Numbered from the stretch's first letter, positions 4,214 to 45,058 are shown. The stretch: DNA of 64,000 nucleotides from Squalus acanthias (GCA_030390025.1 CM059431.1:116252001-116316000), one strand, 5' to 3'. Numbers and translations: made by a program. The notes: generated from the letters alone by a model not told the origin.

Positions 4214-4312
4214 CTAGAAGCGGCTTGCTATCAGCCGCTGACGGACGGCCCTTGCAGTTTCACCATTGTGGGCCGCCCTCACGCCTTGGTGCTGCTGCTG
4301 ATCATCCTCCTC

Positions 4313-4343
<31 letters not shown>

Positions 4344-8435: not shown

Positions 8436-8685
8436 GTGAGTGCAAACCAACACTCAACTTCATCCTACACTGCCTGTCATCACATCCCCATCACTCTGCC
8501 TTCCCAAGCCTACTTCTGCACATCATTACTCACACCAACATACCTTGCATGTCCACCCACTCCTCTCTCTCTGTCTACATAATCACATCCCCATCTGAGT
8601 AGCAACCCCTCACACTCACTCTCATCCTAGTGCAATCATACCAACTAACAACACACAATGAGGCCACTTGGCATTGCCAACCCTC

Positions 8686-16228: not shown

Positions 16229-16393
16229 TTAATATTTTTGTTGTAAATATGCGTTCACTGATTTTTGATAAATTTATTAATTCAGTTTGGATTCTTTTGT
16301 GGTGTGTCTCATTTCCGCTTTGTGCTGTGATATGGCCTGCAACAGGGATGGAATGATGGGGATGTGGTGAGCAATGGGGATCTGGGGTTTAAT

Positions 16394-17590: not shown

Positions 17591-18671
17591 TAACCAAGTG
17601 TAGCAGTTTGATTTTTTTAAGAATAAATGTGCTACTTTAGTTGCCACAACACTCCTGATACTAAATAACATTGAAAATACGGAATGAGACTGTTGCACAA
17701 TGTCAAATTGACAAGAAAGCACTGAAACTCCACTAACTTACAGCTGCTACTCATTACTGATGATCCCTTTAAATAATGTTCCTGGAGCTGTTTTCATGTT
17801 GTTTCACGTCAGCTCTCCCTGTCGCTGTTTCCTTCAAGTGCTAAGATAGGTGGCGACAAACAATTTAGCAGATTGGGTGGTCAGTGAGCGTTGCACACTC
17901 ACTGACGTTACGGTCCACCTGGCGTTGAGGCTCCCGGCGATAACTGTTAGCGACGGCACTGCGGGGGGGGGGGGGGTGCAGGACTTGACGCTGGCACTAA
18001 CAGGAGGCGCTAAGGTACTGAATTATTCCCCCGTGTTCTCTTCTGCCGGCTTCCTCCTCCATCCACTCCCCTGTTGAGAAATTTAGCCCACCCCATCCCC
18101 TCTGAGAATTTGCTAGCTCTGTCCCCTCCAAATTCATTAGTTTTCCAGACACCTCCCCTATCCCCTTATCCATTTCCTTTTCCTAACCACCTTCTCTTCA
18201 TTTACCCCCTTCCCCGCTCTTTACTTCTCCCCTTTCCCCTGCACTCCTCTATCATATACCTTCCCTCCTCTCTCCCTCTTCCTTTCGACCTCTCAATCCC
18301 ACATCATTTCTCCTTTATATTTCCCCCACCTTAGTCCAAATATCCACCTGTCCTATCACCCTGCTTCATTTTAATACTAAACTTAGTCTTGCCACACCGT
18401 CTGTAAAGCCACAGATCAACCAGTAAATATAGAAATTTTCCCATTTGTCAGAACCATGTGCTAACTCCCAGCAGCTGGTTACTGAGACACATGGGCAGAG
18501 ACCTGGGAGAAAACCTTCAACACATTGCCTTGGCTGGAGACAGCTAGGAAGATTTCAGAAAGAAAGCAATAAATTATAATAAAAAGAACTTAGAAAAAAA
18601 ACCATTTAGGATGATATATGCTGACTTTGCTTATATGACCAGAGAAACAAATTCATAGAATCTTACAGAAG

Positions 18672-19290
18672 GCGAACTCCTCCATGCTCCTTGACATTGC
18701 CAAGAGGCTTTCTGGCAGGCTTGCCATTGCACCTAGCAATTCGGTGTGTATGCCCATCACTCTTCTTTTGAAGGCCTCCCCATCAAGGTCCTAATTTGAG
18801 TCCTGTGCAGAGGAAAGCGCACGCGAACCTGCCCTCTGGGGAGCTGGCCCCTGAGCTACCCTATCCCCCTGGCGTTGCTGCAGCCCACTCGTGCCCGGTG
18901 TCTCACCCTGTGCAGATCCCACTTCTAAACTAGCCTCTAAAATACGCGCAGTGCCAATTTCTGACCTGGTGTCTGCGAGTGACACCACTCCTCTTCTTCG
19001 CCCCTCACTCTTGTGCATCGCCTCAGGAACAGGCCGCTCGGGTGCTTGGTCTTGATTATCTGAAAGCAGAAAGGCAAAAGAGTCGGGTTATGGCGGGGGT
19101 GGGGAGAAGCATGATATGCATGCATACAGCATTAGCAGCTTGAAAGTGAGAAGAGATTGTGGGCTGAGGGGGAAGTGGGATGTGAGAAGGATTAGGAATG
19201 AGCATACCGTTGTTGTCCCCAAGGGGTTCAACCTCGCCGATTGCCACAGACTCTATTATCTGCCGCCCAATGATCTACAGTAATCTCTCC
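18672..19290 (-). pseudogene. Fragment of Harbinger Myb gene (exon 2, intron, exon 3)
   Basis: GEVEPLGDNNG and intron text match 15060-15300; exon-3 homology to 15400-15680. Confidence 0.65.
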
Positions 19291-19304
19291 TGCACCTGGC
19301 TGAA

Positions 19305-22300
19305 GTCAAGAATGGAATTACCGCCCAATAAGTCTACTCTCAATCATCAGCAAAGTGATGGAAGGTGTTGTTGACAGTGCTATCGAGTGGCACTTACTCA
19401 CCAATAACCTGCTCACCGATGCTCAGTTTGGGTTCCGTCAGGACCACTTGGCTCCAGACCTCATTACAGCCTTTATCCAAACATGGACAAAAGAGTTAAA
19501 TTCCAGAGGTGAGGTGAGAGTGACTGCCCTTAACATCAAGACAGCATTTGACCGAGTGTGGCATGAAGGAGACCTAGTAAAATTGAAGTCAATGCGAATC
19601 GGGGAAGAAGTCTCCACTGGCTGGAATCATACCTAGCACAAAAGAACATAAGAACATAAGAACATAAGAAATAGGAGCAGGAGTAGACCAATCGGCCCCT
19701 CGAGTCTGCTCCGCTATTCAATGAGATCATGGCTGATCTGATCCAACCTCAACTCTAAAGAACACAAGAAGTAAGAGCAGGACCAGGCCACTTGGCCCCT
19801 GGGCCCGCTCCGCCACCCACAGGGCCTTGACCGATCCGAACTCAAACTCATGTCCAATTTCCAGCCCGCTCCCCATCACCCCTGATTCCCTTTACTTCTA
19901 GGAAACGGTCTATTTCTGTTTTAAATTTATTTAATGAAGTAGCTTCCACAGCTTCCTGGGGTAGCAAATTCCACAGACCCACTACCCTCTGAGTGAAAAA
20001 GTTTCTCCTCATCTCAGTTTTAAAAGAGGAGCCCCTTATTCTAAGATTATGTCCCCTAGTTCTAGTTTCACCCATCATTGGGAACATCCTCACCGCGTCC
20101 ACCCGATCAAGCCCCTTCACAATCTTATATGTTTCAATAAGATCGCCTCTCATTCTTCTGAACTCCAATGAGTAGAGTCCCAATCTACTCAACCTCTCCT
20201 CGTATGTCCACCCCCTCATCCCCGGAATTAACCAAGTGAACCTTCTTTGTACTGCCTCGAGAGCAAGTATGTCTTTTCTTAAGTATGGACACCAAAACTG
20301 TATGCAGTACTCCAGGTGCGGTCTCACCAATACCCTATACAACTGCAGCAATACCTCCCTGTTTTTATATTCTATCCCCCTAGCAATAAAAGCCAACATT
20401 CCATTGGCTTTCTTGATCACCTGCTGCACCTGCATACTAACTTTTTGATTTTCTTGCACCAAGACCCCCAGATCCCTTTGTACTGCAGTACTTTCCAGTT
20501 TCTCGCCATTAAGATAATAACTTGCTCTCTGATTTTTCCTGCCAAAGTGCATAACCTCACATTTTCAATATTGTATTGCATTTGCCAAATCTCTGCCCAC
20601 TCACCCAGCCTGTCTATATCCCCTTGTAGGTTTTTTATGTCCTCCTCACTCTCTACTTTCCCTCCCATCTTTGTATCATCTGCAAACTTTGATATGTTAC
20701 ACTCGGTCCCCTCCTCCAAATCGTTAATATAGATTGTAAAGAGTTGGGGACCCAGCACCGACCCCTGCGGAACACCACTGGCTACTGGTTGCCAGTCCGA
20801 GAATGAACCATTTATCCCAACTCTCTGCTTCCTTTTAGATAACCAATCCTCCACCCATGCCAGAATATTACCCCCAATCCAGTGATTTTTTATCTTGAGT
20901 AATAATCTTTTATGTGGCACCTTGTCGAATGCCTTCTGGAAGTCTAAATACACTACATCCACTGGTTCCCCTTTATCCACCCTGTACATTATGTCCTCAA
21001 AGAACTCGAGCAAATTTGTCAGACATGACTTCCCCTTCATAAAGCCATGCTGACTTTGTCCTATTAAATTATGTTTATCTAAATGTTCCGTTACTGTCTC
21101 CTTAATAATAGACTCCAAAATTTTACCCACCACAGATGTTAGGCTAACTGGTCTATAATTTCCAGCCTTCTGCCTACAACCCTTTTTAAATAAGGGTGTT
21201 ACATTAGCAGTTTTCCAATCTGCCGGGACCTTTGCTGAGTTCAGGGAGTTTTGGAAAATTATTACCAAAGCATCCACAATTCCTACTGCCACTTCCCTCA
21301 ACACCCTAGGATGTAAGCCATCAGGTCCAGGGGATTTATCCGCCTTGAGTCCCATTATTTTACTGAGTACCAATTCCTTAGTGAATTTAATCGTATTTAG
21401 CTCCTCCCCCACTAGAGCCCCCTGTTTGTCCAGTGTTGGGATATTCTTAGTGTCCTCTACCGTAAAGACTGAAACAAAATATTTGTTCAGCATTTTTGCC
21501 ATCTCCATGTTTCCCACCATTAATTTCCCGGTCTCATCCTCTAAGGGACCTACGTTTGCCTTAACCACCCTTTTTCTTTTTATATAACTATAGAAACTCT
21601 TGCTATCTGTTTTTATATTTTTTGCTAATTTATTTTCATAGTCTATTTTCCCTTTCTTAATCAATCCTTTAGTTACTTTTTGTTGTCTTTTGAAGACTTC
21701 CCAATCTTCTATCCTCCCACTAACTTTGGCTACCTTATATGTCCTTGTTTTTAGTTGGATACTTTCTTTAATTTCTTTACTTAGCCATGGATGGCTGTCA
21801 TTTCTTTTACACCCTTTTTTCCTCAGTGGAATATATTTATTTTGAAAGTTGTAAAATAACTCCTTTAATGAACACCACTGCTCATGTACCGTCTTACCCT
21901 TTAATCTATTTTCCCAGTCCACTTTAATCAATTCTGCTCTCATGCCATCATAGTCTCATTTATTCAAGCTCAGTATGCTTGTTTGAGAACCAACCTTCTC
22001 ACCCTCTAATTGGAAGGTGGTTGTAGTTGTTGGAGGTCAATCATCTCAGCCCCAGAGCATCGCTGCAGGAGTTCCTCAGGGCAGTGTCCTGGGCCCAACC
22101 ATCTTCAGCTGCTTTATCGATGACCTACCCTCCGTCATAAGGTCAGAAGTGGGGATGTTCGCTGATGATTGCACAGTGTTCAGTTCCACTCGCAACTCCT
22201 CAGATAATGAAGCAGGCCATGCCCGAATGCAGCAAGACCTGGATAACATTCAGGCTTAGGCTGACAAGTGGCAAGTAACATTCGCGCCACACAAGTACCA

Positions 22301-23050
22301 GGCAATCTCCAACAAGCGAGAGTCTAACCACCGCCCCTTGTCATTCAATGGCATTACCATCACCGAATCCCCCACAATCAACATCCTGGGTGTCACCATT
22401 GACCAGAAAATTTACTGGACCAGCCACATAAATACTGTGGCAACAAGAGCAGGTCAGAGGCTGGGTATTCTGTCGCGTGTCTCACCTCCTGACTCCCCAA
22501 AGCCTTTCCACCATCTACAAGACACAAGTAAGGAGTGTGATGGAATACTCTCCACTTGCCTGGATGAGTACAGCTCCAACAACACTCAAGAAGCTCGACA
22601 CCATCCAGGACAAAGCAGCAAGCTTGATTGGCACCCCATCCACCACCTTAAACATTCACTCCCTCCATCACTGGCGCAACGTGTCTGCAATGTGTACCAT
22701 CTACAAGATGCACTGCAGCAACTCGCCAAGGCTTCTTCGGCAGCACCTCCCAAACCCTCTACCACCTAGAAGGACAAGGGCAGCAGGCGCATGGGAACAC
22801 CATCACATGCAAGTTCCCCTCCAAGTCACACACCATCCTAACTTGGAAATATATTGCCATTCTTTTATCGTTGCTGGGTCAAAATCCTGGAACTCCCTCC
22901 CTAACAGCACTGTGGGAGTACCTTCACCACATGGACTGCAGCGGTTCAAGAAGGCGGCTCACCACCACCTTCTCAAGGGCAACTAGGGATGGGCAATAAA
23001 GACTGGCCTTGCCAGTGATGCTCATTTCCCAGGAATGAATTAAAAAAAAG
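19305..23050 (+). mobile_element. CR1/L2-group LINE (family B), split by a younger CR1: pieces 19305-19641 and 22012-23050
   Basis: QFGFRQ..AFDRVWH upstream of the insert continues as GVPQGSVLGPTIF, FADD, ILGVTID and MEYSPLAW downstream. 3' end with AATAAA and A tail. Confidence 0.85.
19642..22011 (-). mobile_element. 5'-truncated CR1 LINE, ORF2 RT with one frameshift (ORFs 20417-21943 and 19848-20552)
   Basis: KSPGPDG, NYRPVSLTS, QHGF, LDFQKAFD, GVPQGSVLGP, KFADDTK, RPHLEYC and FFTQRVV motifs; (TTCTTATG)n tail. Confidence 0.92.
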
Positions 23051-23830
23051 TAGCTTGCCCCCCCAACTAAGAAGATGGGGTGTGGGGGGGGGGGGGATCA
23101 AAAGTGGATTTTTCTATGAAAATACAAAAAACTTGAATGCAAGACAAGAACCAATGTGTGTCACAGGCTGAACCAAGTAGAAGTGGCAAAAACTCATAAT
23201 GTGGGCAAAACCACTTTTTCCATTAGTCTGGAAATTAACGTGTATGATGTTAAATCCATTCGTGGGTCACTGCAATCCAGTTTAAAATGTATCGAAAATG
23301 CCTATGACAACCTATCTCTGAGGTGATTCATTATAAAAATGTTCACTTTACATGCAGTAACTGTTATGCTTGTAGTGCTAGAATGAGTGATTTCAAAGTT
23401 AACTGTCATAAAATGTTAGATAATAACTGGTATTACACACATGATTTGAGTCTCCGTGCATTTCTGCACTCTGACCAGACATTGCGAGTTTGTTGTCCTA
23501 CACCCTCTCCCCCCCACTCTACCCAAGGTTTGATATACCAATCTCCTCCCCAGTTGGGAGTGTTGGGGTGCCCTCTCCCCACAATTAGGTAGTTTCCCTG
23601 TCTTTGCTCCCTCGTCCTCACTGCTATCTCTGTTCCTTCCCACTCCGCTCCCCTGCTCCCCTTCTCCTATTCCTGTTCCTCTCCTTTTTCCCCCCTGCCT
23701 CTCCATTTTTTATCCTCCTCCTCGCCCCTCCCTCTCTCATTCCTGCCTCTGCCCTTTTCTTCCTTTATTCCCCTACTCCCCACTTGCCCCTTGCATTGGG
23801 CCAATTATCCTTCCCACCCTCTTACTCCAC

Positions 23831-25513
23831 TGTAAAGTTTCGCAATTATCGCGATTCAAAATAACGAAAGAGAAACAGATTCGTTTGACCAGTTTATTTA
23901 AATGAAATGCTGTCATGATTATAAAGGACACAGAAGCCTGTAAAATGGCCGCCACGCATCGTGGCAGAAGCTTCCAGAATTTCAGTGGGCAGACAAGATG
24001 GCGTTCGAATATACATTTCAAATATAAGACGGGATCATACTCGATGAGCACTGATAAAGACAGGATGCAACCTGTTTGCATTTGTGACAATAGCAAAAGA
24101 TATAAGTGCTGGAATCGTTTTCCATGCACAAGTAAGGACCATTGTACTGGGCAATCGAAGGCCCATCCAGACACATCAATACACAAATACCCCCACGGCT
24201 CTACAATGAGAGAGCCATTCTCGGGTGATTAAACAAGCATTCGGGGGCCCCCAAAACCAGTCAGGTAGATGATTCATACGATCCTGGCTGGGCCAACAAT
24301 GGGGAAAACATTAACGGGTAGTTGGCCAGTTTCAGGTGCTACCGAAACCTGTTAAGGACAAGAATCGCCCCATGCTGGGAGTTTTGAGCGCCAATATTTC
24401 ACAAAGGACAAACATTAAGATTTGGGTGGGAGATAAGGGAACACAGCACTATAACTATAGTGAACAAATGTCCATCGCGCTCTTATTCTCTTATCTCGCT
24501 GCTGACTGCGGAGGGTTTATTCTCTTATTCGCTTGTGACTTCATGGACTGGCTTGACTGGTGAGCTTCTGTGTTTTCTCTGGACTCTGTTGACTATGTTG
24601 GGTGGAGCTCAAACGGAACGAGCCGCCTCAACGAGGGCCAGTGACCGGGTGCACCATCCCGAGGGTCGGTAAACGGTGTCTGGACCCGAAGGCCCGAAGA
24701 GACGAGACGAGACGAGAAGAAGAGGAGAAGAATCCACGTGCCGCCACGGTCAGTAAACCCCGACCATGCCCGAAAATACACGAAATAACTTTTCATTGAA
24801 GTCCCCCGACAACCGGTGTCGGGGACAGGGAGACTCTTTTTCGAATTCTACCGGCAACCGGTGTCGGACACAGGAAGACTCTCCTTCGAACCGTGTCCGA
24901 GTTCTGTCGAGTTCTTCTTGACAACGGGGAGCCTGGCCTGCTTGCCGCAGCAGCGAAGATAAACAAGTGGGGTACAGAGACCCCTCAAAACACGTGACAG
25001 TCAGGCGCTGCAGCGAAACGAGCCGAGTGCCTCACTTTAAAAAATTCTCCGAAGTATCACGAGTGGTGAGCATGTTTCCCGATCCTACAAATCTAGATGT
25101 AGTGTAGGTATTGATAGGGGAGGGTGGTTTTATTAAGGATAAAGTATAATGTGTTCCCCTTTTTACGATATGCCGTGCGTTCTTCATTACCATAGACCAA
25201 GCTTTATGAATGTATGTATACTTGTACTCTCGTTAATTTGCGCCTATGACATGTACTTCATGATCTTGAACGCTATGCAGTAAAGATTTCCATTTCGTAC
25301 TATTCAACCGGGTCTATTTGAGTATTTCTCTGCATTACTGCTCTCGCACCTAAGTCCAGTCTCAGAACCGTAAGGGCGAGTGGGTCGAACCACTCACAGG
25401 TGCTTATTGCAACAAGGCTGGCCGGAGACCAGAGCAAGCAATAGTATTAGGCAACGAAGGCCTAACCTCGCACCAGCACCGTCTGCGATACAAGCACGAC
25501 ACAAACCCTTACA
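23831..25513 (+). repeat. 5' LTR (1683 bp)
   Basis: Colinear direct repeat of 34887-36569 (offset 11056), TG...CA ends. Confidence 0.97.
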
Positions 25514-25517
25514 GAGA

Positions 25518-27338
25518 ATGGCGACCATGAAGGGACACTGGCAGCGAGAGAGTAATGTTTTAGACCCTGGTGTGAATAGGCGAAATGTGATGGATGAGAG
25601 GGTAGCCGACTATGTGTTTGGGAAGGTTAACTTAACCAAAAGGTGGATAAGTGACCTACTGATGGATAAGTGTCCACTAGACGCAGCCATCAAATGGACA
25701 GGCAGTAAAGAGCATAAGAAGTCGGTGGAGAAAGCGGTCTGGCTGATGTGCTACAAGAAGCAAGTCCAACTTTCGGACCAGGTCATTGTGGCACAGGCAG
25801 CTCAGATCAGGGAATTGGAAGTTGAGATGGAGGAAAAGGTCACGGGAGGACAGAAACTCATTGCATCCTTGAATGCGTTACATCAGGAACGCCAGATAGT
25901 AGCCAACCACCATGAGGCAAAAATTGATTACCTAGAGTGTCAGGTCACGGAAGCAAAATTGAACGAGGGTAGGATTAGAGAACGGTGTGCCCGCCTAGCG
26001 AACCAGATAAAAGCCCAAGAAGAATGCTTGAAGGGAGTTAGGGTGGCATATAAGATGGCCCTCGAGGATAGGCATGAGGGAGCCGACCACAGTGTTTGCC
26101 AGAAGGAGATAGGGAACCTAAGAGAGGCCCTGAATAAGGCAAACGGCTTGGTGTGCCTCATCAGCCCGTCAGCAAACCAGCCACAGGTGGGTAGGGAATT
26201 CCAAAAATCCCTACCAGACAAAGCAGAGGAGGTATTTGCCACTGTGCCCTCCGCGCCACCCAGCTATTCGGCAACCTGGGTAAGGGAGGAAGTGGTGGAA
26301 ATAGAGAAGGAGGTTCCCGAGGTAGGACAATCCCCGGAGGTAGAGTCGAGCCCGGGACCGATGTGTCCGCTCCGAGGTCACAGAGAGGCCCGAATGCAGC
26401 CAATGGGGATGACGGGGATGTCCTGAACCAGCTTGTATTGCCCCACAGCTCACACCAGCTGAGAGCAATGATTAGCCATGTACGGAAGCTGTCCGAGTCA
26501 GACGACCCTTCGTAAACTTTAGGAGGTAGAACAGACCGCAGCAATTAATGGCTGCGACGATGCGGATAAGACCAAAATGTTGCTGTTCTCGTTAGATAGC
26601 TCGATCCATCAGTGTCTCTCAGACGAGAGCAAGAAGGGAAATAAAACCTATGGGGAGTTACGGGACGAGGTCCTAGAAGTGTTGGGGGCGGATGACGAAG
26701 GTCCGTTCGTCAGATTGTGTCAGACCGTACAGATGGAGGGAGAACCCCCGAAGGTTTTCGCCGACAGGCTGTGGCCAGTATACCAGCATAGCTGCCCAGG
26801 CACGCCAGGGCGCGATTATCTGGACGGTGCCGGTTTAACTCATTGGCTCAGGTGTTTAGTAGCCAACAGTTTGCCAGCCGTCAGGGAGCAGGCCAAAGCG
26901 TGGTTTGATCCCACTAACCCCGCCACAACAGAGGAGTCTGTCCTAAATCGACTCACCATAGGGTATCGGAACACTAGGAGCATGGGAGCGCGTCCCCTTA
27001 AGGGAAAGGTGCATGAGGCACGGCCCGCAGCCCCGGCTCAGAAAGAGTGGCATCAGGAGGGAAACCGCGCCCCACAAGCCAGTGGTGCTTGTTACGGGTG
27101 CGGGAAGACAGGTCACTGGCGTAAGAACTGTAGGAACCCCTGGAAGGACCCCAGGGATAAAAATCCCGCAGCCTGAACCCAAGCGCCTGTCTCTGAGAGA
27201 GGAGCTGGTGTGCCTATCCATCCCGATGCGATAGAATCAATGTTGGGAGCTATGCGGTCCCTTATGATTTCGCAAGGAAGGGTGGCAGTCGCTACCGGCC
27301 TCACAGATGCCGCAACCCCGTCCACCGGTACCCAATGA
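25518..27338 (+). pseudogene. gag: gag (coiled-coil N-terminus, late domains, capsid-like region, CCHC zinc knuckle), disrupted
   Basis: ORFs 25380-26426 and 26577-27176; PSAPPSY; CYGCGKTGHWRKNC. Frameshift(s) at ~26380-26520 and a premature TGA at 27174. The frame continues to TGA 27336. Confidence 0.85.
25519..25536 (+). promoter_or_regulatory. Primer binding site, tRNA-Arg-type
   Basis: TGGCGACCATGAAGGGAC, 5 nt after the LTR. Complementary (17/18, one G:U) to the 3' end ...GTCCCTTCGTGGTCGCCA recalled for vertebrate tRNA-Arg(UCG). Confidence 0.75.
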
Positions 27339-27342
27339 CTAG
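27336..27342 (+). promoter_or_regulatory. Candidate gag-pol stop-codon readthrough signal UGA-CUAG
   Basis: CAA TGA CTA GAG; the protease LLDTGAS (27438-27458) is in the same frame with no intervening ATG before codon +24. Confidence 0.65.
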
Positions 27343-30300
27343 AGCCCGTGCAGCCCGTCTATCTGTGTCCGCTCAGCTATGATGCGTGGAAAAGACCCCT
27401 GGTTGAGATGGAGGTAGAGAAGCAGAAGGGTAGTTATTTGTTGGACACGGGAGCTTCATGCACCGTGATTCATACGGATAGCCCCTTTGACTCACCACTG
27501 TCTACCAAGGTCCATACACATTAGCGGGGTTCACGGGAAAAGAGCAGGCTGGCGCGTTCTCCATTCCGCTTTCCATTCATTTAGGAGCACTCCACACCAC
27601 ATGGAAGTGTATACTGATGAAATGGCAGGAGGGGGGTGGCAGAGGTATCCTCGGATCGGATCTCCTATCGGAACACGGGATCCTCGTGGACCTTAGGAAT
27701 CACTGTCTCTGGGGAGCCAAGGGTGGAAAAGGCAAGGTAGTGGTAATCCCAGGGAAGGAAGGTAAAGGGGCTCTGTGTACCATGAAGCCATCCGGAGGTT
27801 ACGACCTCGGGCTTATGGTCGCGGATGTCCCAACGGACATGCAAACGTACGTGTCAGATAATATGCACGCATTTGCAACCCACAAGCACGATTGTGGTAG
27901 GGTTACCGGGTTTGAGGTCAGCGTAGACGGGGACCCCATGACCCGGCCCCAAAAGCAGTATAACTTCCTCAAAGAAGCAGAACCCGATATGGAGACAGCA
28001 ATGTCCTCATTGGTGCAGCAGGGCGTGTTGAGGCCGATAGCCACACACGTGAACTCCCCATTATGGCCGGTGAGGAAGCCGGATAATTCGTGGAGGGCCA
28101 CGATGGACTACAGAGTCCTTAACAGTAACATCCCCGCCTGCGCGCCCACAGTAGCAGCAGTTGCTGACCTAATAGGGAGTATCCCAGCGTCCGCGACCAC
28201 GTTCACGGTGCTGGATATCTCGAACGGTTTTTGGTCCATCCCGCTGCGGCGAGAGGACCAGTACAAGTTTGCCTTTACTTTCAAAGGTCAACAGTACACA
28301 TGGAACTGTTTGCCACAGGGTTTCCACAACAGCCCCAGTATTTTCCACCAGTGTATGGTAGGAAGTTTAAAGGAGTTTAGTCAGCCCAATCAGATAGTGC
28401 AGTACGTGGATGATTTGCTCCTGTTCACCGACTCAAGGGAGGAGCATGGACCACTGCTAGCCGAGTTATTGGAGCTGCTAGCGAGAAAGGGTTTTAAAGT
28501 GAACCCTAAGAAAGCACGTATCGGTCAGCAGGAAGTAAAATTCCTGGGTCTGACCATTCGCGCTGGGGAAAGAGCCAAAGATAAGGCTAGGAGGGAGTCG
28601 GTGCAGGAGTTACCGATTCCCAACACCATAACGGGTGTGAGGTCCTTTCTGGGACTGACCGGTTACTGTAGAGACTTCATCGAGGACTATGCGGCCACAG
28701 CAGCTCCGCTGCTCCGACTCCTCCATAAGGGAGTGGAGTGGTCTTGGGACGAGGGTTGCCAGGCAGCATTCGAGAAGTTAAAAAGGGATTTGCAGACCGC
28801 GCCAGCTTTAGGGGCCATAGATGGGGGGAAGGAGTTTTTCCTGGAGGTAGCTGCCAGCGGAGACAGCTTGAGCGCCGTGCTGCTCCAAGAGCGTCACGGC
28901 AAGCTGCGGCCGGTTGTCTATTCGACCAGGGTGTTAACGGATGTGGAGAGGAGTTTTTCCAACTGCGAAAGGCATCTCTTAGCCACGCATTGGGCTGTGA
29001 AAAGATCAGCGATCTTCACAGGGCTCTCTCCCATCACTCTCCTCACCCATCACACACCAACTAAGATGCTTCTAGATGGGAGGATTAAGGATGGGACTGT
29101 AAGCAGCGCTTGTATTGCATGCTGGACCCTTCTCCTTTCCCAGATGGATCTTAGAGTTAAAGGTCTTTGCGAGCCCAAGCTCGCGGCCAACTTGGTATAC
29201 CCCGGAACAGCCCACCGGTGTTCGGTGGAAGGGGTGTGGGAGGTCAACATAGGTTTGCGGGCCGGGATACATCCCACAGGTCGCGAGATTTATGTTGATG
29301 GTTCCAGCACAGTGTCCGCTGGCGAACGACTCACAGGGTGTGGAGTTTATGACACTGCGGCAGACCTTGCCCTGGCAATTAATCTCTCCAGCACCATGAG
29401 CGCGCAGCAGGCTGAGCTGTCTGCGGTGGCGTACGTCGTTACCCACCCAGAAATCTTCCCAACCCCATACACGATTTGTTCGGACAGTATGTTTACGTGC
29501 AATTCCTGTACGGAATACCTGGCCATTTGGTCCCGCCGTGGCTACACCTCCGCGGACGGGCGACCTTTAACGGTGAAGCCCTTGCTGGAAAGGATCCTAG
29601 CAGCAGTAGGGGAGGAAGGGGAGATTTTCATCCATAAGGTGAAAGCTCACTCCTCCACAGAACCCCGCGGGGAGGGCAACCAGCACTAGCCAGGGAGGGT
29701 GCCCGTAACGGCATTTTCTGGGACCCCTCTGGACCCGGACCCGTGGCAGCGATCCAAGGCAGGGAAGGGAATCCCAGGAACACCAGGGTAGCACTGCCTC
29801 TAGACCTTAAGACCGTCCAGAACCAGGATCCCGCCCTAAAAGCAGTTCTCAGAACGATTACTGAGGGCAAGCAGGTAGAGGGCCCGTACAGTACGGCAAC
29901 CCTCTCCGTTAAAGAAGGCATGCTGTTCCGCGAGGAACAGTGGGTTGTGCCGCAGCAGCACAGGAGGGAATTCCTCCAGTTGGCTCATGAGGGGCCGGGG
30001 GCAGGACACCCCGGGCCTGAGGTTACCTGGCAACGGGTAGAGCAGGCGGGATGGTGGCCGGGACTCAGGGAGCAGGTCCGCGAGTTCTGTGCTAGCTGTC
30101 TCGTGTGCGCAGCAAACAACCCAGACCCCCAGAAAAGGAAAGTGCACATGGGACACATCAGGAGGGTGGAGGGACCATGGCAGTCGATACAGATCGATTA
30201 CATAGGGCCCCTGCCCACCACCCAGGGAGGCTACAAATACTGCCTCGTCTTGGTGGATGTGTTTTCCAAATGGGTAGAAGCCTTCCCCTGTAGAACAGCT

Positions 30301-31818
30301 ACGGCGCTGGGTACAGCCAAGATCTTGGTTCGGGAAGTGTTCTCGCGGTGGGGACTCCCCCGTTTCGTGGAGTCAGACCAAGGGAGTCATTTCACCGGCC
30401 AGGTGATGCAGAACACCCTCATGCTTTTGGGCATTGAAGGGAAGTGGCACGTAGCGCACAATCCCCAGTCATCCGGGATTGTTGAACGCATGAACCGGAC
30501 CCTAAAGGAGAAGCTGAGGAAAGAGACTATGAACTCGCCCCAAAAATGGGCGGAGGTTCTGCCTCTAGTCCTCATGGGGATCCGGGCCAGTCAGTCGAAA
30601 AGTACGGGGTATTCCCCGTACGAGGTGATGACTGGGAGGATCATGCGAACCCCCACCAATGTACTAGCCCCGGTGCTCACTGAGGTTCAGCTCCAAGAGG
30701 TGAAACGGGACAAGTTTGTCCAGACCCTCTTGGAGCGCCTGAAGCAGGTTTACGAGCAGGCAGCTGGGAACATGGGAAGACAGCATCAGGGCAATCGCCT
30801 GTTGCTGGAACCCCACAAGAAACGGGAGTGGGAAGTCGGTGATCAGGTCATGGTTAGGAACTATGCCAGAGTAGGGAGTTTGGAACCACTGTATATGGGG
30901 CCCTACAGTATTGTAGATAAGGCGAGTCCCATGGTGTACGCCGTAAAGGTACCTCGGCGCACGAAATGGTTCCACATCAACCAGTGCAAGCTGTATAAAC
31001 CGGGTGCACAGGGGCCAATCACGGGGGCCAGACCTGCGAGTGGGGACTCGCAGCCCCGGGTAGGACCACAGGGCACACAGACCGTTAAAGCAGCCTGCTT
31101 GAGGGGAGAGGACATTCTAGAAAAGTGTAGGATCTTTTCTTGAGGTTGGGATTCAGATGAGGAAGAGCTCGAGGAGCTCGACCACGTTAGTGACCCGATC
31201 GGAGAGGTGCTGGGGTCGGAGGACGAAAGTTTCGTCCTCGACCCAAACTCAGGGGAGATAGGGGCTGCGAGTGGAGATCCACACATGGTGGAATCAGAAA
31301 GTGCAGATCCCGAGCCCAGGGGGGCGGGGCCAGGGGAGACGGAGCCAGCGGCTCTGGTAGGACCACAGGTCGTGACGGTGGAAGTCTCGGTACCCGGTCC
31401 GTCGGCCCTGGAAATCTTGCCCTTGGGGGAGGTAGGGATTGCGAGTGGAGGACCACATACTGGGCCAAGTAGGGTGGAACCAGAAGCTGCAAATCCCGAG
31501 TTCAGGGGGGCGGAGCCAGGGGAGACGGAGCCAGCGGCTGTGGTGGGACCACTGGCCGTGACGGTGGAAGTCTTGGTTCCTGGTCCATCGGCCCTGGAAA
31601 TCTTGCCCAAAGTAGCCCTCCGTAGGTCAAGTCGGACACCCCAGCCCAGGAAGTCGTGGTCAAGTCCCCCGTGCACCCCCAGGCGTAAGTTCAAGGTCAA
31701 GGCAGCCCAGGGAGATCCCAGTCCCAGCGCAGCGGCGACAGGCTGCGGCAGATCAAAGGAAGGGGTCAGTGCCCTCCCACCATTGGGAAAAGCTCGTGGC
31801 AGCCTTCGCAGAATTTAG
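27339..31818 (+). pseudogene. pol: pro-pol: aspartic protease, RT, degenerate RNase H (tether), RNase H, integrase, long C-terminal extension
   Basis: LLDTGAS and GILGSDLL; NSPLWPVRKP, LDISNGFW, LPQGFHNSP, YVDD; FLEVAAS..ERHLLA; IYVDGS, SAQQAEL, SDS, KVKAH; H..GHPG..C..C, IDYIGP, SDQGSHF, ERMNRTLKE. Frameshifts at ~27510 and ~29685, TGA at 31141. Confidence 0.93.
31255..31608 (+). repeat. Imperfect ~186-bp in-frame tandem duplication in the integrase C-terminal extension
   Basis: PGETEPAA.VGP..VTVEV.VPGPSALEILP occurs twice; GAAATCTTGCCC at 31411 and 31597. Confidence 0.85.
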
Positions 31819-32096
31819 GTAGGCCGCCCTGGGAACGGGCGGCGCTGTACAGTTTAAGTTTAGGATAAGTTTATAAGTTTAAGTTTATAGTTTTTATGTC
31901 AGGTTAAGTTTGTAGTTTAATTTTAACAGAAAATGGTAAAATGATGGGAGTTAGAGATAGGAATAGTTAAAGTCTATCCAGCATACATGTCTTTTTACGT
32001 GAGATGAGGTCAAGGGACCCACTCACCCTTCACAAAAGCCAGAGACTCTTGGGAGGCTGGCTACATCATTTTATCTGATCACAGGAACCAGGAAAG

Positions 32097-34446
32097 ATGG
32101 AAAGGATTCTGATAGTGCTCGCAACGATCGGATATGGATTGGCCTATCGGGGCCTCACCAAGGATGTCGTTGTGTTTGGTTGCTCCGGGGACACGGGTCC
32201 CATCGCGACAGATGGGACCGGGGAGCGAAAGGCTGAGGAAACCGCCACTTATTTCCACAAGGGAAGGTGGCCCGGATGGCTGGGAACGAATTCAACGGAA
32301 TACTCCAGCGCATCCGGATTTGCCTATAAAGAGATTTCTATACTTTGCCCAGAGTGAGGATCATTGCACCCAGAATCAGCGTCACCGTCGGCAAAAGGAT
32401 ATGTTTGACATGCAATGGGAAGGTCCCATTGAGCCGATGGTGGTAGTTACGGAAGTTAAGCAAGACTATGAGAAATTCCTCGGTTGAGTGGGAGCGATTG
32501 GGTAACAATACCCATCGGACAATTACGGGGACTAACGGACAATTGAAAGTCTGTTGGGACAAATGGTGGGAACCGGATGAGGGAATATATGTTTGTATGT
32601 GGGGGCCGAAGTACGTTTGCCCCAAGGGTATATCCATATTTTTCGTACACCAGTGGCAGGATAACGGGAAAGGGATGAGGTGGGATGTCAGCACAAAGGG
32701 GTGCGGAGCTCCATTCTCCCCGATCCTGGTAAACGCCACTGAACTCATCACGCGCCCACGCAAGGCTCCGCCCACGATTCCGGTGGTTTTGGCTCAGGAG
32801 GAAGGGTGTCGTAAAGCCACTAAGGGGCCCGGGAATGGTTTGGTACTGGTCCCAACAGACCAGATACTATTTCAAGGGGTACATTACGCGGTGGCTTCGG
32901 TGATTCTAAATCTCACCGAGGTGCAGTTACCAGAGTGGTGCCCCAAAGAGACGGAACAATTGTACCAGGTCCTGTTGACAAACATGTTCAGACAATTCTA
33001 CGAGTTTGATTTTGTGGAGATTGACAAAACAAGCTTGTACACCACACCACACGAAGTTTTGGGTCAGGTGGGGAGACAAAGAAGGGGTATTGTGAACGAT
33101 ATGTTCACTGCCTTTAATACAGGAACATCTGTCGTCAACGCTCTAGACAACGTGGAGCTGCAGACCCAGATCAATGGTTTAAAAACACAATTAAAAAGCA
33201 TCCTCACAAGCGAAAACAAGGTAGTAGGGTCTGAGTTACATGAGGACCAGGCCATGACGTTACACTTAAAAGAAATTATAGCAGAGCTGGAGAAGCATGC
33301 GAGAACGGTAAATGCCCTGATCAGGGAAGATCGGAACGCATCCGATCAAGCTGCGCAGAACGAGGTGTGCGTACTATACGGGGCGTGGTTACTGGGCGAG
33401 GGCCGCAGTAATTTGGAGGATTTAAAACAAGGTTTGGTCCCGTCCTGGATAAGTAACAAACACCTGCAGGCGCTCCACCCTTTTCAGAATGCATTAATCC
33501 GTGCCAGCTCAGGCTAGCCTCAGAGGCATACCCAGTCCCCGTGGACTGCAGACGGTCAAACCATACCATCATGGGTATAGTACTACGTATGCCGGTGTTG
33601 GGCGACACAGCAAAGCCCGCACCGGTGTATCGGGTGGAGAACATTGGTGTCATTCAGGGGGGAGCCCACATTCGCTACGCAGTGGTCCCACCTTACGTCA
33701 TCCACTGGGAGCAAACGATGACAGGTACCGACCTATCGGGTTGTCGTGGCCAGGGAGCACACATCATCCTGTGTCCCCAGCACTTGAATGCCTTTTTAAC
33801 ACCACAATGTGGGTTCAGAACGGCTGGCGCCAAGCCCATGAATTGCACCATGGAGGCAATGACACAAGATCATGTGCCTCCGCCGGTGGCATACATAGGG
33901 GGTGGAACATATTGCGTTACCACTGCAGCGCAACACTACCAGCATGGAAACCACAGCCGGTGTCCGGTGAGTGACAGCAGTTTCTGTTTTAAATCCAGGG
34001 CTGAAGTTCAAGTGGCACAACAGCGAATTGTCCCGATCCCTGAACCATCCACTGTTCATCTTACAATAAAAGAGAATTTCACAGACTTGCAGCGGTTCGT
34101 CGCGCATTTCGGATACATCATTCCCCCTCTCCCTGAACACCTCGCCAAGCTTTTGAAAGCCGTTGCGGTATCGCAAAAACATTTTTACACCCTGGAACAG
34201 AAAACAGTAGAAATAGGGACAGAAATTTTGGACATAGTGATCCCACCGTGGTGGGATCTGTTCACTAATATTGAAGTTCCGTCATGGATCAGGATAGCCT
34301 CCCACATTTTAGTTGTGTGCCAAGTCATAATAGTAGTGTACCTATTGGTCGTGCACTGCAAGAGAGGCAGACGCCTCACAAAGCAGGAGAACACAGGGGA
34401 GTGGAGAGAACGTTACGTGCGCGTGAACGAGGAAAGTTCCGCGTGA
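32097..34446 (+). pseudogene. env: env: signal peptide, Ig-like domain, class I fusion (F-like) glycoprotein with TM anchor; disrupted
   Basis: Hydrophobic N-terminus after a CAG|G acceptor at 32084; furin RQRR (33074-33085) followed by GIVNDMFTAFNTGTSVVNALD; heptad region; Cys-rich region; TM IASHILVVCQVIIVVYLLVV; basic tail. Frameshifts at ~32350 and ~33490, TAG at 32444. Confidence 0.88.
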
Positions 34447-34874
34447 AAGGCCAGGATGACGCCTGCTCCATTTTACCATGTGTGTCTTGTAATGGAGTGT
34501 TTTAGTTATGTAGATGTGTAACTAAGTTTGGAATTTTTGTACGTTAAAAAGAGTTGTTTTGAAGATTGGAACTTTTGTATTTTTAAAAGAGTTGTTTTGA
34601 TTATTTTTTCCTTGTATAATAAAACATGCACATACAGGTGGTGCGAGAGGCATCGGCCTGTTGCACTTGGAAGGCGTATACGCAGTGTAAGTTTAAAGGC
34701 AATACTGCCTACGGTTGGTCCAAGTTTTAAACAATGTAATTTCCCTGGGAAATGAGGACGGCATGGAGACCATAGATAGTTTTTAAGTTAAGGGAGTGTT
34801 TGGATGTGGAGAATCGGGATAATTTTTGCTCACCACCACTTTTAATTGATACGATAAGCGGAGTTATTCGCATC

Positions 34875-34886
34875 AACAGGAGGGAC
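34875..34886 (+). promoter_or_regulatory. Polypurine tract
   Basis: AACAGGAGGGAC immediately before the 3' LTR TGTAA. Confidence 0.7.
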
Positions 34887-36569
34887 TGTAAAGTTTCGCA
34901 ATTATCGCGATTCAAAATAACGAAAGAGAAACAGATTCGTTTGACCAGTTTATTTAAACGAAATGCTATCATGATTATAAAGGACACAGAAGCCTGTAAA
35001 ATGGCCGCCGTGCATCGTGGCAGAAGCTTCCAGAATTTCAGTGGGCAGACAAGATGGCGTTCGAATATGCATTTCAAATATAAGACGGGATCATACTCGA
35101 TGAGCACTGATAAAGACAGGATGCAACCTGTTTGCATTTGTGACAATAGCAAAAGATATAAGTGCTGGAATCGTTTTCCATGCACAAGTAAGGACCATTG
35201 TACTGGGCAATCGAAGGCCCATCCAGACACATCAATACACAAATACCCCCACGGCTCTACAATGAGAGAGCCATTCTCGGGTGATTAAACAAGCATTCGG
35301 GGGCCCCCAAAACCAGTCAGGGAGACGATTCATACGATCCCGGCTGGGCCAACAATGGGGAAAACATTAACGGGTAGTTGGCCAGTCTCAGGTGCTACCG
35401 AAACCCGTTAAGGACAAGAATCGCCCCATGCTGGGAGTTTTGAGCGCCAATATTTCACAAAGGACAAACATTAAGATTTGGGCGGGAGATAAGGGAACAC
35501 GGCACTATAACTATAGTGAACAAATGTCCATCGCGCTCTTATTCTCTTATCTCGCTGCTGACTGCGGAGGGTTTATTCTCTTATTCGCTTGCGACTTCAT
35601 GGACTGGCTTGACTGGTGAGCTTCTGTGTTTTCTCTGGACTCTGTTGACTATGTTGGGTGGAGCTCAAACGGAACGAGCCGCCTCAACGAGGGCCAGTGA
35701 CCGGGTGCACCATCCCGAGGGTCGGTAAACGGTGTCTGGACCCGAAGGCCCGAAGAGACGAGACGAGACGAGAAGAAGAGGAGAAGAATCCACGTGCCGC
35801 TGCAGTCAGTAAACCCCGACCGCGCCCGAAAATACAAGAAAGAACTTTTCATTGAAGTCCCCCGACAACCGGTGTCGGGGACAGGAAGACTCTTTTTCTA
35901 ATTCTACCGGCAACCGGTGTCGGACACAGGAAGACTCTTCTTCGAACCGTGTCCGAGTTCTGTCGAGTTCTTCATGACAACGGGGAGCCCAGCCTGCTTG
36001 CCGCAGCAGCGAAGATAAACAAGTGGGGTACAGAGACCCCTCAAAACACGTGACAGTCAGGCGCTGCAGCGAAACGAGCCGAGTGCCTCACTTAAAAAAA
36101 TTCTCCGAAGTATCACGAGTGGTGAGCATGTTTCCCGATCCTACAAATCTAGATGTAGTGTAGGTATTAATAGGGGAGGGTGGTTTTATTAAGGATAAAG
36201 TATAATGTGTTCCCCTTTTTACGATGTGCCGTGCATTCTTCATTACCATAGACCAAGCTTTATGAATGTATGTATACTTGTACTCTCGTTAATTTGCGCC
36301 TATGACATGTACTTCATGATTTTGGATGCTATGCAATAAAGATTTCCATTTCGTACTATTCAACCGGGTCTATTTGAGTTTTTCTCTGCATTACTGCTCT
36401 CGCACCTAAGTCCAGTCTCAGAACCGTAAGGGTGAGTGGGTCGAACCACTCACAGGTGCTTATTGCAACAAGGCTGGCCGGAGACCAGAGCAAGCAATAG
36501 CATTAGGCAACGAAGGCCTAACCTCGCACCAGCACCGTCTGCGATACAAGCACGACACAACCCCTTACA
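34887..36569 (+). repeat. 3' LTR (1683 bp)
   Basis: Direct repeat of the 5' LTR. AATAAA at 36335-36340 (AGTAAA in the 5' copy). Confidence 0.97.
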
Positions 36570-37929
36570 CCACTTGGCCTGAACACTGAACTTGACCTTG
36601 ATTCCCTATGTGCAACGCCATGAAAGATCGACTAGTTTACATTGAGCTCCACTATTTTTAAGCCAGCATTGAGAATGGACAGGTTACTACCTCTATGAAA
36701 ATAGCTGAGTGAGGACATTTGATGTGAGTGCATTTAACATTCATATGATAACATTACTCAAGAGTGATTTCCAAGCTATTATGCATGTTGATGCTGTTGA
36801 ATCAAGTGCCAACATTAGATTAATAGAAACTATTTGATGCTATTTTATACTGATTTTAAGGAGATGATTAAAAACAAGTGTGTTTTTTGTTTAATCTTTG
36901 TTTTTTACTACCCTGAATAAATGAGACAACATATGCAACTGTCCAAAGATTAGAATTTTACAATAAAAACAGTAAATAAACTCAGTAAAACCAGAAAAAC
37001 AAACATAGGTTTCAACAACCTGAAGAGAATATGAGTGTGACTTTCCCTCGACCAAATCTTACCAGCCCTCAGACAGCAACAACAACAACTTGTATTTATA
37101 TAGCGCCTTTAACATAGTAAAACATCCCAAGGTGCTTCACAGGGGCGCTATAACAACACAACACACCAAAAGAAGCAGTTTAGGTCAGCTTTGAGAACTT
37201 GGCCAAAGCACCTCACAAATTTCATGCTCAGCGTGCTCTAGTTAGAACCTCTTATACTTTTCCCTGCTATCTTGTGCAGCTGACGATAAAAGTCATCTTT
37301 CCTGAAGGTTTGGTGTCTCGTGCATTTATTGATTGCTATAGTCCCCTGTTCTACCATTGGAATATTCACAATGCTGTATCAAAGTTAAAAGAATAGAGAT
37401 CTACAATGGTCTTCTTCTTAAGGATGTATCTGTGCTTATTTTTTACTTTTTTGAAGAAATATTTATTTTTCTAAAGTTAGCTTCGACATAATTAACCATA
37501 AAGTGTATTGTCTGCCGATTAGAGCAGCAACTTCACATTTTCAAAGATAAGGAGTGAAACATACTGTCGGCAATATTACCGGATGATGTTTTAACTGTAT
37601 GGTGATTAATTCAGTTAAAATAAGTGCGCACAGACCTGCATTAAAACAGCAGAAGACTGTCATCTAAACATTCTCTTTTGGTTAACGCTGCATAGCCACT
37701 GAAATGATGCCATGTGTAGCTGTACAATTCATCGCATCTCATGTTGCGCACTGTTTTTTTCGAGGGGGAGGGGAGCAATGAAGAAAATAAATAAACCAGC
37801 CAAAAGAGGAAAAAAAATCAAAGATCACAGACTCAACAGGAATGACTCTGTGACCGGGTGCTCCCAGCGATGAGCTGCACTCAGGGAGTGATGGTCAGAG
37901 AATTGGACTACAGTGTCGTACCTTTCCAT

Positions 37930-38185
37930 AAAATTACACAGAATTCACAGCACAGAAACAGGCCATTCGTCCAAACTGGTCTGAACCGATGTTTATGCTC
38001 CACACGAGCCTCCTCCCACCCTACTTTATCTCACCCTATCAGCCTAACCGTCTCTTCCTTTCTCCTCATGCACTTATCTAGCTTCCCCTTAAATTCATCT
38101 ATGCTATTCGATTCAACTACTCCTTATGGTAGCGAGTTCCTCATTCTCACCACTCACTGGGCAAAGAAATTTCTCCTGAATTCTC
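37930..38185 (-). repeat. CR1-family 3' end fragment
   Basis: Reverse complement of the 49515-49760 repeat. Confidence 0.6.
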
Positions 38186-39469
38186 TGACCATTCACCCTG
38201 AGAGTGTGATCTGCCTATTGGGAGTGCGGCATCATGGAATCACCCCCAAAACCAGCGCTGGAAGTGATCCAAAGTGTTCCAGCTCAAAGAGAATATCTGG
38301 TACTGGCAAGAACCTTAAAGCAGAATTACTAATAAAAAAAAGCATCACGATGAGTGCTTCGGAGTGATTACGAAGCTGTATTTTAATCAAAAGGAGTCAG
38401 CTAAGATCATAAAGTGCAAGAATGAAACTAAACTGGTTTATCTGTATCCTGAGATTAGGTTATAGCTTTGAAAACACTCCAGGACAATTCTTAATATTTA
38501 TAATATACATTGTAAACTCTGGCTGCTGATCTCACTCATTTTTTGGTCTATTTTGCACTGCATGTCAGGCAGACAATGGGTAGATTTTACAAGGTTGCAT
38601 TCCTGGCGTGGACCTTCTCCGCTGCGATCGCATAGCGGCATTTTGGACATGGAAGTCAGTGGGCTGTATTGGATTTTTCATTCATTAATTTTAATGGGCG
38701 GAAAATCCTGGGGGACATGCTGACCTCCACGCCCAATTTTCCACCCAGCCCTTTGGTGCACAGAGGTGTGACTCGTCAAGTCTATGTTTTATGATGCACA
38801 TCAATGTTCAGCCAGTATGATTAACAATAGTAGTGGAATATATGCAAATGTATCAAGAATTTGCAGTTAATCCTATGGCTCACATATTTTACGTGTATAT
38901 CTTAAGTTTCTCTGTTTCGGAACTTTTATGAGCCAAGTTTCACCCAGACTTTCCAAAAATAAAATACAGCAGCAGTTTCATCTTGATCTGGAGAGACCGT
39001 CAGTTTATCAAACTATTTACCTGGAAAACACATTTATTCTTATTTGTTTTTATATTTTCTGTCGCATTTTCTTTCCTCCTCACCCGCGAGGGCTGACTCA
39101 TGGAGGATTGTGCCTCCATCACCTTGGTCCCAGTGGCCATTTGGAGTGTGGACATTGAGTAGCGGCAGACTATTCAACTACTGGGGGCAGCACAGCTGAG
39201 CCCAACCTTATCCTCACTCAATGTCCACCCATGACATCAACACACACGTGCATTTCTAGCTAGAGATGGCAATCAGGAACTGGAACCATGGCTGATTTTC
39301 CTTTCTCCAGCCCAGGAGTACTGCAGCCAATTGTTGCCATTGCAGCTGAAGTCACCTAATTCAGCACAGAGCAGTAACTGAGCCTGGGATCTTATGGTTG
39401 TATACCGACTTTACCACCTGAGACAATGGAGGAGCGGATATCATCTCATTTCTTCATATTTCATTCATA

Positions 39470-44575: not shown

Positions 44576-45058
44576 CATCAACACTCATCCGGCTCCCTGC
44601 TTAAAAGAAAAAACAGACAACCCATCGTGGCTTTCCTACCAGCCCAATGGGTTAATTTGTCAATTCCTGATTCCCTTCTGTCACTGTGGGGAAATATTCA
44701 CTTAAAATTATGAAACTTCAATTTAATAATGTCCAATATCTTTAAATTTCATTCAGTTGTTGTGTGGTGAAAAAAAAACAGCTGTGAGCGGAAAGGGTTA
44801 ACTCCTTTGCAGGTTTCTAAGAAGGTGGAGCAAATTGTCAGATGCATGGAATTGCGTCACTTCACGTAAATTTTTTATAAACTTTCCTTATCGAAAAAGG
44901 CAGCTTTTCACAATTTAACGGGTTAGTTAACATTTTCTCAAAAGAAGACAAACCCAGATACCATCAATCAATGTCAACTTGTGTCACACAGCTTCTCACA
45001 GTTTTCAGGTAAATTTAAAACTCGTCAATAAAACAACTGTTACTTTTGCAAAATCTTT

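Follow-up and report, generated by a model that had tools for sequence, protein, structure and literature searches.

The subject of this analysis is a provirus at positions 23831-36569 of a 64,000-nt window (the whole stretch of genomic DNA that was analyzed, to which all coordinates below refer). It is a full-length element bounded by long terminal repeats (LTRs), complete in structure and defective in every gene, and no second copy of its family was found inside the 64,000-nt window. We regard it, with reasonable though far from complete confidence in the explanation as a whole, as one dead member of an endogenous retrovirus (ERV) family present at high copy number in a cartilaginous fish, most likely a shark. 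The family would belong to a deep lineage adjacent to snakehead retrovirus (SnRV) and carry an envelope glycoprotein (Env) of the fusion protein (F) type, and its membership in the lokiretroviruses is not demonstrated. The features of the locus are as follows.

23827-23830, no strand: left copy of the target site duplication (TSD) CCAC; the same 4 nt abut both ends
23831-25513, plus strand: 5' LTR, 1683 bp, TG...CA (BLAST, ends read)
25518-27338, plus strand: gag, broken (25518 is a putative 5' bound), with N-terminal coiled-coil region, CCHC and the family stop
25519-25536, plus strand: putative primer binding site (PBS) for tRNA-Arg(TCG), complementary to the tRNA 3' end at 17/18 positions
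27090-27131, plus strand: gag CCHC knuckle (zf-CCHC, Pfam)
27336-27338, plus strand: the family's own gag stop TGA (comparison with open copies)
27339-31818, plus strand: pro-pol, broken; family copies have it in frame with gag, one TGA intervening
27444-27452, plus strand: protease DTG (motif)
28070-28558, plus strand: reverse transcriptase (RT) domain RVT_1 (Pfam)
28403-28414, plus strand: RT YVDD (motif)
28745-29143, plus strand: tether (RT_RNaseH_2/RT_RNaseH, Pfam)
29285-29680, plus strand: RNase H (RNase_H, Pfam)
29947-30123, plus strand: Integrase_H2C2 (Pfam)
30175-30465, plus strand: rve (Pfam)
30898-30906, plus strand: GPY motif
31144-31815, plus strand: Pol C-terminal extension, 224 amino acids (aa), without Pfam match
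32097-34446, plus strand: env, broken, with signal peptide from 32097 and an F-like body
33074-33085, plus strand: furin-type site RQRR (motif)
34294-34359, plus strand: env membrane anchor (read from sequence)
34875-34886, plus strand: polypurine-tract-like run of presumed function, adjoining the 3' LTR (read from sequence)
34887-36569, plus strand: 3' LTR, 1683 bp (BLAST, ends read)
36570-36573, no strand: right copy of the TSD CCAC, abutting the 3' LTR

Comparison of both ends by BLAST gave LTRs 97.7% identical over 1685 nt (38 mismatches, 0 gaps); when trimmed to TG...CA (1683 nt each), the pair shows 30 transitions as against 8 transversions, with 17 of the 38 differences lying in a CpG context, and has a Kimura two-parameter distance (K2P) of 0.0230. 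A TSD of 4 nt would agree at random with a chance of 1/256, and a 4-bp TSD is also present in all three other copies with readable ends (10 copies checked, 7 not evaluable). As words only, putative signals of the 5' LTR are a TATA-like one at 23920 and, further on, ATTAAA at 24228, and a tRNA-Arg(tcg) gene whose 3' end matches the PBS was located in the same genome (L039). The Pfam scan covered eight open reading frame (ORF) pieces between the LTRs, with matches in three and none in the other five (the gag N-part, the pol C-extension and three env pieces). It recovered the tether (PF17919, E 1.5e-20) and a second RNase H (PF00075, E 2.1e-15), as well as an SH3 match in an integrase of HHCC/DDE type, in which the DDE residues are intact. 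The order LTR-gag-pro-pol-env-LTR with a 4-bp TSD and a YVDD RT, as reported in an earlier note made from the sequence alone, is borne out by the LTR comparison, by CCAC on both sides and by the Pfam domains, and its description of a complete provirus stands for structure and fails for coding capacity. That note had also seen only a handful of lesions. Scoring against other copies having open frames (L009-L012) yields ten disabling lesions, namely 7 frameshifting length differences and 3 premature stops, which disable every gene: (i) in gag, frameshifts near 26381, 26511 and 26521 and a premature TGA at 27174-27176; (ii) in pro-pol, a frameshift near 27511 (protease), a 10-nt length difference near 29685 (RNase H/integrase border) and a premature TGA at 31141-31143 (pol C-terminal part); and (iii) in env, frameshifts near 32347 and 33498 and a premature TAG at 32444-32446.

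Other copies supply the coding capacity that this one has lost. Their gag frames measure about 580-658 aa and end at a TGA equivalent to 27336-27338, behind which pol continues in the same frame (1496 aa, stop to stop, in copy L011), while open natural Env copies have 783 aa, including a signal peptide, RQRR at 327-330 and a C-terminal anchor at 734-756, and contain 9 sequons together with 22 cysteines. The Pol extension, acidic and proline-rich, recurs in other copies as ~225 aa beyond the integrase SH3 (e.g., L011 5142-6192), and in the window copy it contains a 136-nt tandem duplication (31287-31422 vs. 31473-31608, 89% alike).

The searched genome comprises 3.71 Gb in 3882 contigs, and only the best candidates were scored, so that all counts are lower bounds. 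They amount to at least 60 other matches for pol at 96-98% protein identity, 24 of the 60 with open frames of at least 1400 aa (best 61 of 20,823 candidates); at least 121 for the C-half of env at 90-95%, 53 of the 121 with open frames of at least 789 aa (best 122 of 11,858 candidates); at least 149 for the C-part of gag at 90-97% protein identity (best 150 of 7,052 candidates); and at least 39 for the LTR at 88-98% DNA identity. The first-look candidate numbers (5,464-20,823) suggest a family of perhaps thousands of copies but are not copy counts. The summed contig depth, which is 25-41 in unique flanks vs. ~19,000-232,000 in the provirus, is no copy number either. In ten other copies, chosen by correct pol-env spacing on one contig, the LTR pairs differ by K2P 0.0057-0.0210, none being identical; the window copy, at 0.0230, is therefore the oldest of the eleven compared. 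At annual rates of 2.2e-10 to 1e-9 substitutions per site, these eleven copies (K2P 0.0057-0.0230) span roughly 3-52 million years, the lower rate being that assumed for a chimaera in the accessible text of PMC4422223. Two open env copies show 42 synonymous vs. 18 non-synonymous differences (this one pair gives dN/dS 0.12 overall, with 0.09 for the F-like part), a sign of purifying selection by which env would have been needed while the family spread. LTR matches paired 7.6-7.7 kb apart (start to start, same strand) occur on contigs C3 and C12 and probably represent family members with internal deletions, ~3.4 kb shorter than the window copy. As a sign of expression we rejected contigs of 240-905 nt, 90-97% alike over gag, pol and env, from two sequencing runs, as the RNA label of these runs is a guess and high-copy DNA would look alike.

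The position of the family among retroelements was approached by an RT tree of 44 rows, 34 retroviral and 10 Gypsy, picked to represent each clade; three of 88 RT matches (L036, P0009 and P0015) had been left out for short coverage. Retroviral and Gypsy rows split at 100/100, and in a quick tree of 85 rows the family likewise stands apart from 26 Gypsy rows with a Shimodaira-Hasegawa-like approximate likelihood ratio (SH-aLRT) of 100. A grouping of the RT within Gypsy/errantiviruses, which the earlier note had named as one danger to its reading, was not found. The family clusters at 84/88 with amphibian, coelacanth and unlabelled Logan/metagenome (lgn, ena, jgi) rows, and it falls outside a 17-row clade (94/89) that holds gamma-, delta-, Xen-1- and L022-type viruses. 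Its nearest relatives outside cartilaginous fishes are the amphibian and coelacanth ERVs of this clade (annotated as 'NYNRIN-like' and 'Gypsy retrotransposon integrase-like 1'), to which identity is 52-54% in RT and 41-44% in integrase, and only 40-45% over Pol; their hosts hold Env relatives at 18-21%. From these sequence comparisons the family appears to share a lineage with ERVs found in other cartilaginous fishes, in amphibians and in the coelacanth; this lineage lies beside SnRV at the retroviral base, where the branching order is a polytomy, and falls outside the gamma/epsilon/delta/alpha-beta clade. In the literature examined, as far as its accessible text goes, no name for this shark-amphibian-coelacanth lineage was found. 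A scan of viral contigs with an alignment as query returned 26 retroviral records, with no foamy virus among them, and a scan with a single-protein query gave no match. The RT translation of L013 is identical to the SnRV row, and that of L025 to the Xen-1 row, in the accessible part of the PMC7947760 supplement. An Actinostola protein (P0026) tried as a stand-in for Odin was discarded as a chimeric Gypsy model without RT.

Among named viruses, SnRV has the closest RT, with 44% identity over 258 aa, followed within Pol by 26% in the tether, 30% in RNase H and 30% in integrase. The quick tree joins the family and SnRV at SH-aLRT 79. Both have gag and pol in one frame with a single stop between them, a Gag with an N-terminal coiled coil and one CCHC, and an LTR end of ...TTACA; SnRV presumably uses a tRNA-Arg PBS as well. 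In BLASTP the two Gag proteins align only over the knuckle and a coiled-coil stretch (E 0.001). SnRV Pol gives the same Pfam matches as the family, tether included; the two RNase H domains seen earlier are accordingly present (tether + RNase H) and lose their value as a lokiretrovirus mark, because SnRV yields the same matches, and gamma-like ERVs likewise give both. There are also differences, in that the SnRV integrase has a weak MLVIN_C match whereas the shark family has none, the SnRV Env is 1134 aa stop to stop and accompanied by extra ORFs, and the 224-aa C-terminal extension of Pol belongs to the shark family. According to the accessible text of Han 2015 (PMC4422223), an ERV lineage of the elephant shark (CmiERV lineage I) clusters with SnRV.

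The Env provides the second line of argument. The claim that it lacks CX6CC proved right, and neither TLV_coat nor foamy Env is matched in Pfam. The proposal of a Mononegavirales-type fusion envelope is upheld by predicted fold and not by sequence, where PF00523 (F0) gives no match at E<=10 for the open Env and none in 20 family members at E<=1; a profile search of PDB sequences gave 21 matches at E<=10, none of them an F protein and all amounting to coiled-coil noise (best E 0.017). Sequence homologues of Env (51 proteins at E<=0.001) are confined to two groups, (i) cartilaginous fishes (Rhinoraja longicauda 78%, Pristiophorus japonicus 74%, Mustelus 32%, Chiloscyllium 27%, also Heterodontus) and (ii) amphibians (Pelodytes 21%, Xenopus 20%, Mantella 18%). 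An AlphaFold2 model of the open natural Env has a predicted local distance difference test score (pLDDT) of 57 overall, with residues 13-235 unmodelled, and residues 236-650 mostly at 65-90 per 10-residue block, with dips to about 35-57 at 311-390. Searched with Foldseek against PDB, it finds exclusively paramyxovirus/pneumovirus F among the matches listed (best 1ztm, E 1.4e-11), and in VIA-align all 50 entries listed are F proteins (Z 9.7-13.2). For example, residues 245-651 of the model superpose on residues 38-440 of 1g5g_A (Z 12.1, root-mean-square deviation 5.4 A, 314 residues), which spans nearly the whole F ectodomain, at a sequence identity to F proteins of 7-15%. Matches in the viral structure library BFVD are glycoproteins of mononegaviruses and kin, baculovirus F, paramyxovirus F0 and the Envs of walleye epidermal hyperplasia virus 1 (WEHV-1) and walleye dermal sarcoma virus (WDSV). 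The model supports a paramyxovirus/pneumovirus F-type fold, with the predicted domain order of F (F2-like start, cleavage site, heptad repeat A, beta-rich domains, heptad repeat B, anchor), preceded, unlike in F, by an extra N-terminal region of ~220 aa, for which the searches yielded no more than Ig-like leads below threshold (Pfam Ig_3 E 0.22; Atlas scores <=0.80).

The same Env type seems to reach SnRV. In hhalign the SnRV Env matches the profile of the shark Env with 89% probability (E 2.3e-6, 286 columns running through the cleavage site and heptad repeat A), against 0.3% and 2.3% for the gamma-type Envs of Xen-1 and L022 as negative controls; by BLASTP alone the SnRV and family Envs are not significantly similar. 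A model of the C-terminal 511 aa of SnRV Env (L013 env 6131-9532) has pLDDT 56.6 and matches that are all F (TM 0.2-0.3), its alignment consisting of the shark/amphibian family and hence not being independent. The walleye Envs match the shark model at E 8.3e-11 (WEHV-1) and 8.6e-8 (WDSV) with low TM-scores in BFVD, and epsilonretrovirus Env may, by this modelling, be F-type too. A description of SnRV or epsilonretrovirus Env as F-like was not found in the accessible text of the literature searched (e.g., PMC4977317, bioRxiv 10.1101/2021.11.05.467493, PMC7947760).

Several observations weigh against the SnRV-adjacent reading. At its base the RT tree is a polytomy of the family clade, SnRV, P0104, P0136, one small group and the 17-row clade, and the tree holds no lokiretrovirus, Odin, foamy, ERV-L or lentivirus rows. 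Imposing a clade of family + SnRV, a group named after the tree had been seen, costs 1.6 log-likelihood units (approximately unbiased test, p 0.42), so that the link is 'not rejected' rather than demonstrated. Whole Pol is barely closer to SnRV (tblastn E 9e-108) than to gammaretroviruses (8e-113 to 3e-57). The confidence of the Env model is middling and its N-terminal part is unmodelled, the estimate of selection on env comes from a single pair of copies, the copy number is a lower bound, and the host is read from the names on related proteins. Moreover, relatives carry the NCBI name 'NYNRIN-like', and NYNRIN we take to be CGIN1. The lokiretrovirus integrase is tied to CGIN1 in the accessible text of PMC7947760, and in our hand counts on the published alignment text of that source, which stand in place of a tree with lokiretrovirus rows, the integrase core (158 aa) agrees with the Loki-Lch consensus at 79 positions (~50%) and with SnRV at 57 (36%).

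The last two observations lead to the rival that survives best, according to which the family either falls within the lokiretroviruses or is their nearest sister group, and would extend these to cartilaginous fishes. With lokiretroviruses as described in PMC7947760, the family shares gag-pol-env with tether + RNase H and an Env that combines a signal peptide with a furin-type site, a coiled coil, an anchor and F likeness, the last for the shark family by predicted fold; a local motif likeness to lokiretrovirus Env was noted by eye only, and a lone lokiretrovirus would also fall at the basal retroviral position seen in the tree. The F-type Env architecture (signal peptide, RXKR-type site, fusion peptide, coiled coil, anchor) is, however, found in the SnRV Env by hhalign as well as in the shark family, so it does not discriminate. 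The RT points the other way, since the hand count over the 100-aa core gives 42 for the lokiretrovirus row vs. 59 for SnRV and 40 for murine leukaemia virus (MuLV), and that over a later 150-aa stretch of RT gives 47 vs. 57 for lokiretrovirus and SnRV. The RT motif of the shark family is LPQGFHNSPSIF (LPQGFHNSP, retroviral type; SnRV LPQGFH.SP) rather than the PFGYxNSPAEF of the lokiretrovirus rows compared, and the word ISNGFWS occurs in SnRV rows only (3/3 occurrences in the accessible supplement of PMC7947760). Lokiretroviruses further differ from the shark family in that no smc gene is seen in the latter, nor a PF00523 match in its Env (0/20 members). We also asked whether the relatives in Xenopus, bullfrog and coelacanth are lokiretroviruses already published, and rejected this, as 0/4 of their specific motifs occur in the published Loki consensus of the same hosts, which therefore carry two different families. 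In the accessible text of Wang and Han 2020 (PMC7947760), lokiretroviruses were found in none of 6 chondrichthyan genomes screened, yet Chiloscyllium punctatum, one of the six, holds an Env relative of the shark family. In the literature searched, which leaves most subscription journals outside its coverage and was in part accessible only incompletely, no report of lokiretroviruses in cartilaginous hosts was found.

On this balance lokiretrovirus membership is not supported, and we consider the rival unlikely. The features on which the earlier note based a placement in or near lokiretroviruses do not support it, given that dual RNase H also occurs in SnRV, whose Env is a distant homologue, and that by hand count the RT is nearer SnRV, though the integrase is nearer Loki; because that placement lacks support, the proposed extension of the lokiretrovirus host range does not follow from it, and SnRV-like ERVs are already on record in the elephant shark (accessible text of PMC4422223). 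We prefer to describe the lineage as a deep-branching retrovirus of SnRV-like type, at the same reasonable confidence as the explanation as a whole. Against named references it would be a mosaic by sequence, with RT and RNase H nearer SnRV, integrase nearer lokiretroviruses and an Env type common to both. One step beyond this, and as no more than a tentative proposal that we would sooner doubt than adopt, the shark-amphibian-coelacanth family may be an unnamed deep retroviral lineage that joins SnRV-like RT/RNase H, an integrase of lokiretrovirus/CGIN1 type and an F-type Env.

An ordinary class I ERV (epsilon- or gamma-like) is a distinctly improbable alternative. It could account for the 4-bp TSD, one zinc knuckle, GPY and gag-pol read-through, which are ERV1 features in the accessible text of PMC4299795, and for the WEHV-1 and WDSV Envs among the structural matches, but it is at odds with the position outside the 17-row gamma/delta/Xen-1/L022 clade (94/89), with the lack of Pfam matches to MLVIN_C and Gag_p30 in family proteins and to TLV_coat in Env, and with the gamma-type Envs of Xen-1 and L022 being unrelated to the shark Env in hhalign. 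ERV4 (Chong et al. 2014), which according to PMC4299795 lacks both a gag zinc finger and a GPY/F motif and has a 5-bp TSD, was considered separately and is ruled out by CCHC, GPY and the 4-bp TSD. Finally, a non-retroviral, errantivirus-like Ty3/Gypsy element with an F-type env, a kind of env widespread in metazoan Gypsy elements (bioRxiv 10.1101/2023.10.26.564294, accessible text), can practically be dismissed, even though the tether still scores as Gypsy RNase H (PF17919), on account of an RT apart from the Gypsy rows of both trees, the second RNase H (PF00075) and the statement in the same accessible text that no intact vertebrate ERV is homologous to the invertebrate elements.

Under the SnRV-adjacent reading, the TGA would be read through to give Gag-Pro-Pol, as happens in gamma-/epsilonretroviruses and SnRV, and Env would act as a cleaved class I fusogen. 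Paramyxoviruses use a separate protein for attachment; in the shark family the N-terminal region of Env might bind the receptor. The family would have spread mainly by germ-line reinfection, since env has kept open frames and shows purifying selection.

If this placement is true, a 'Mononegavirales-type' Env is no lokiretrovirus hallmark, being common to at least one exogenous retrovirus (SnRV). It would also bear on a published proposal (PMC9040795) that env was acquired independently by the canonical retroviruses and by the lokiretroviruses. Should SnRV and perhaps walleye epsilonretroviruses carry an F-type Env, the fusogen would be old and widespread in early-branching fish/amphibian retroviruses, with no acquisition restricted to lokiretroviruses. 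An ERV that carries env and is present in very many copies, with nearly half of the sampled env frames open, is a rare case. To our knowledge, high-copy ERVs lose env as a rule, and under the unnamed-lineage proposal the family would be an exception; it is useful for asking how env-bearing high-copy ERVs spread.

As to the host, the nearest named proteins are all from sharks and skates, the closest being from Heptranchias perlo (92% over the RNase H-integrase part), followed by Rhinoraja longicauda (78%) and Pristiophorus japonicus (74%), with other sharks further off. A cartilaginous-fish host, which the earlier note had suspected, is probable on these grounds, and a shark seems the most likely. 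No report of a Heptranchias endogenous retrovirus was found in the literature searched, from which most subscription journals were absent. Contigs bridging both LTR-flank junctions are present in one DNA run. Across the env-LTR-flank stretch, 8-25% of sampled 31-letter words occur in at least 6 differently coded organisms, and near-identical family members therefore occur in several related species or labels. The Pristiophorus japonicus gene models 'Niban 1-like' (P0036) and 'zinc finger protein ZFP2-like' (P0037) contain stretches 55-61% identical to Env and are likely annotation chimeras with ERV pieces; pieces of the family would account for gene models of shark genomes that bear the names 'NYNRIN-like', 'Niban 1-like' and 'ZFP2-like'.

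The window contains other repeats outside the provirus. Flank stretches at 22001-23134, 36743-37309 and 37877-38443 have a summed depth of hundreds of thousands to millions in the DNA run, far above the provirus, and are very high-copy short host repeats. Further retroelement remains, comprising three RVT_1 stretches and one integrase-core fragment, lie at 9370-10041 (minus strand), 20420-21955 (minus), 60486-62107 (plus) and 43864-44577 (minus). A PIF/Harbinger-type DNA transposon occupies 1789-5392, with a DDE_Tnp_4 transposase on the minus strand at 4217-5392 (E 5e-42) and, within the same element, a Myb/SANT-like ORF on the plus strand at 1789-2745.

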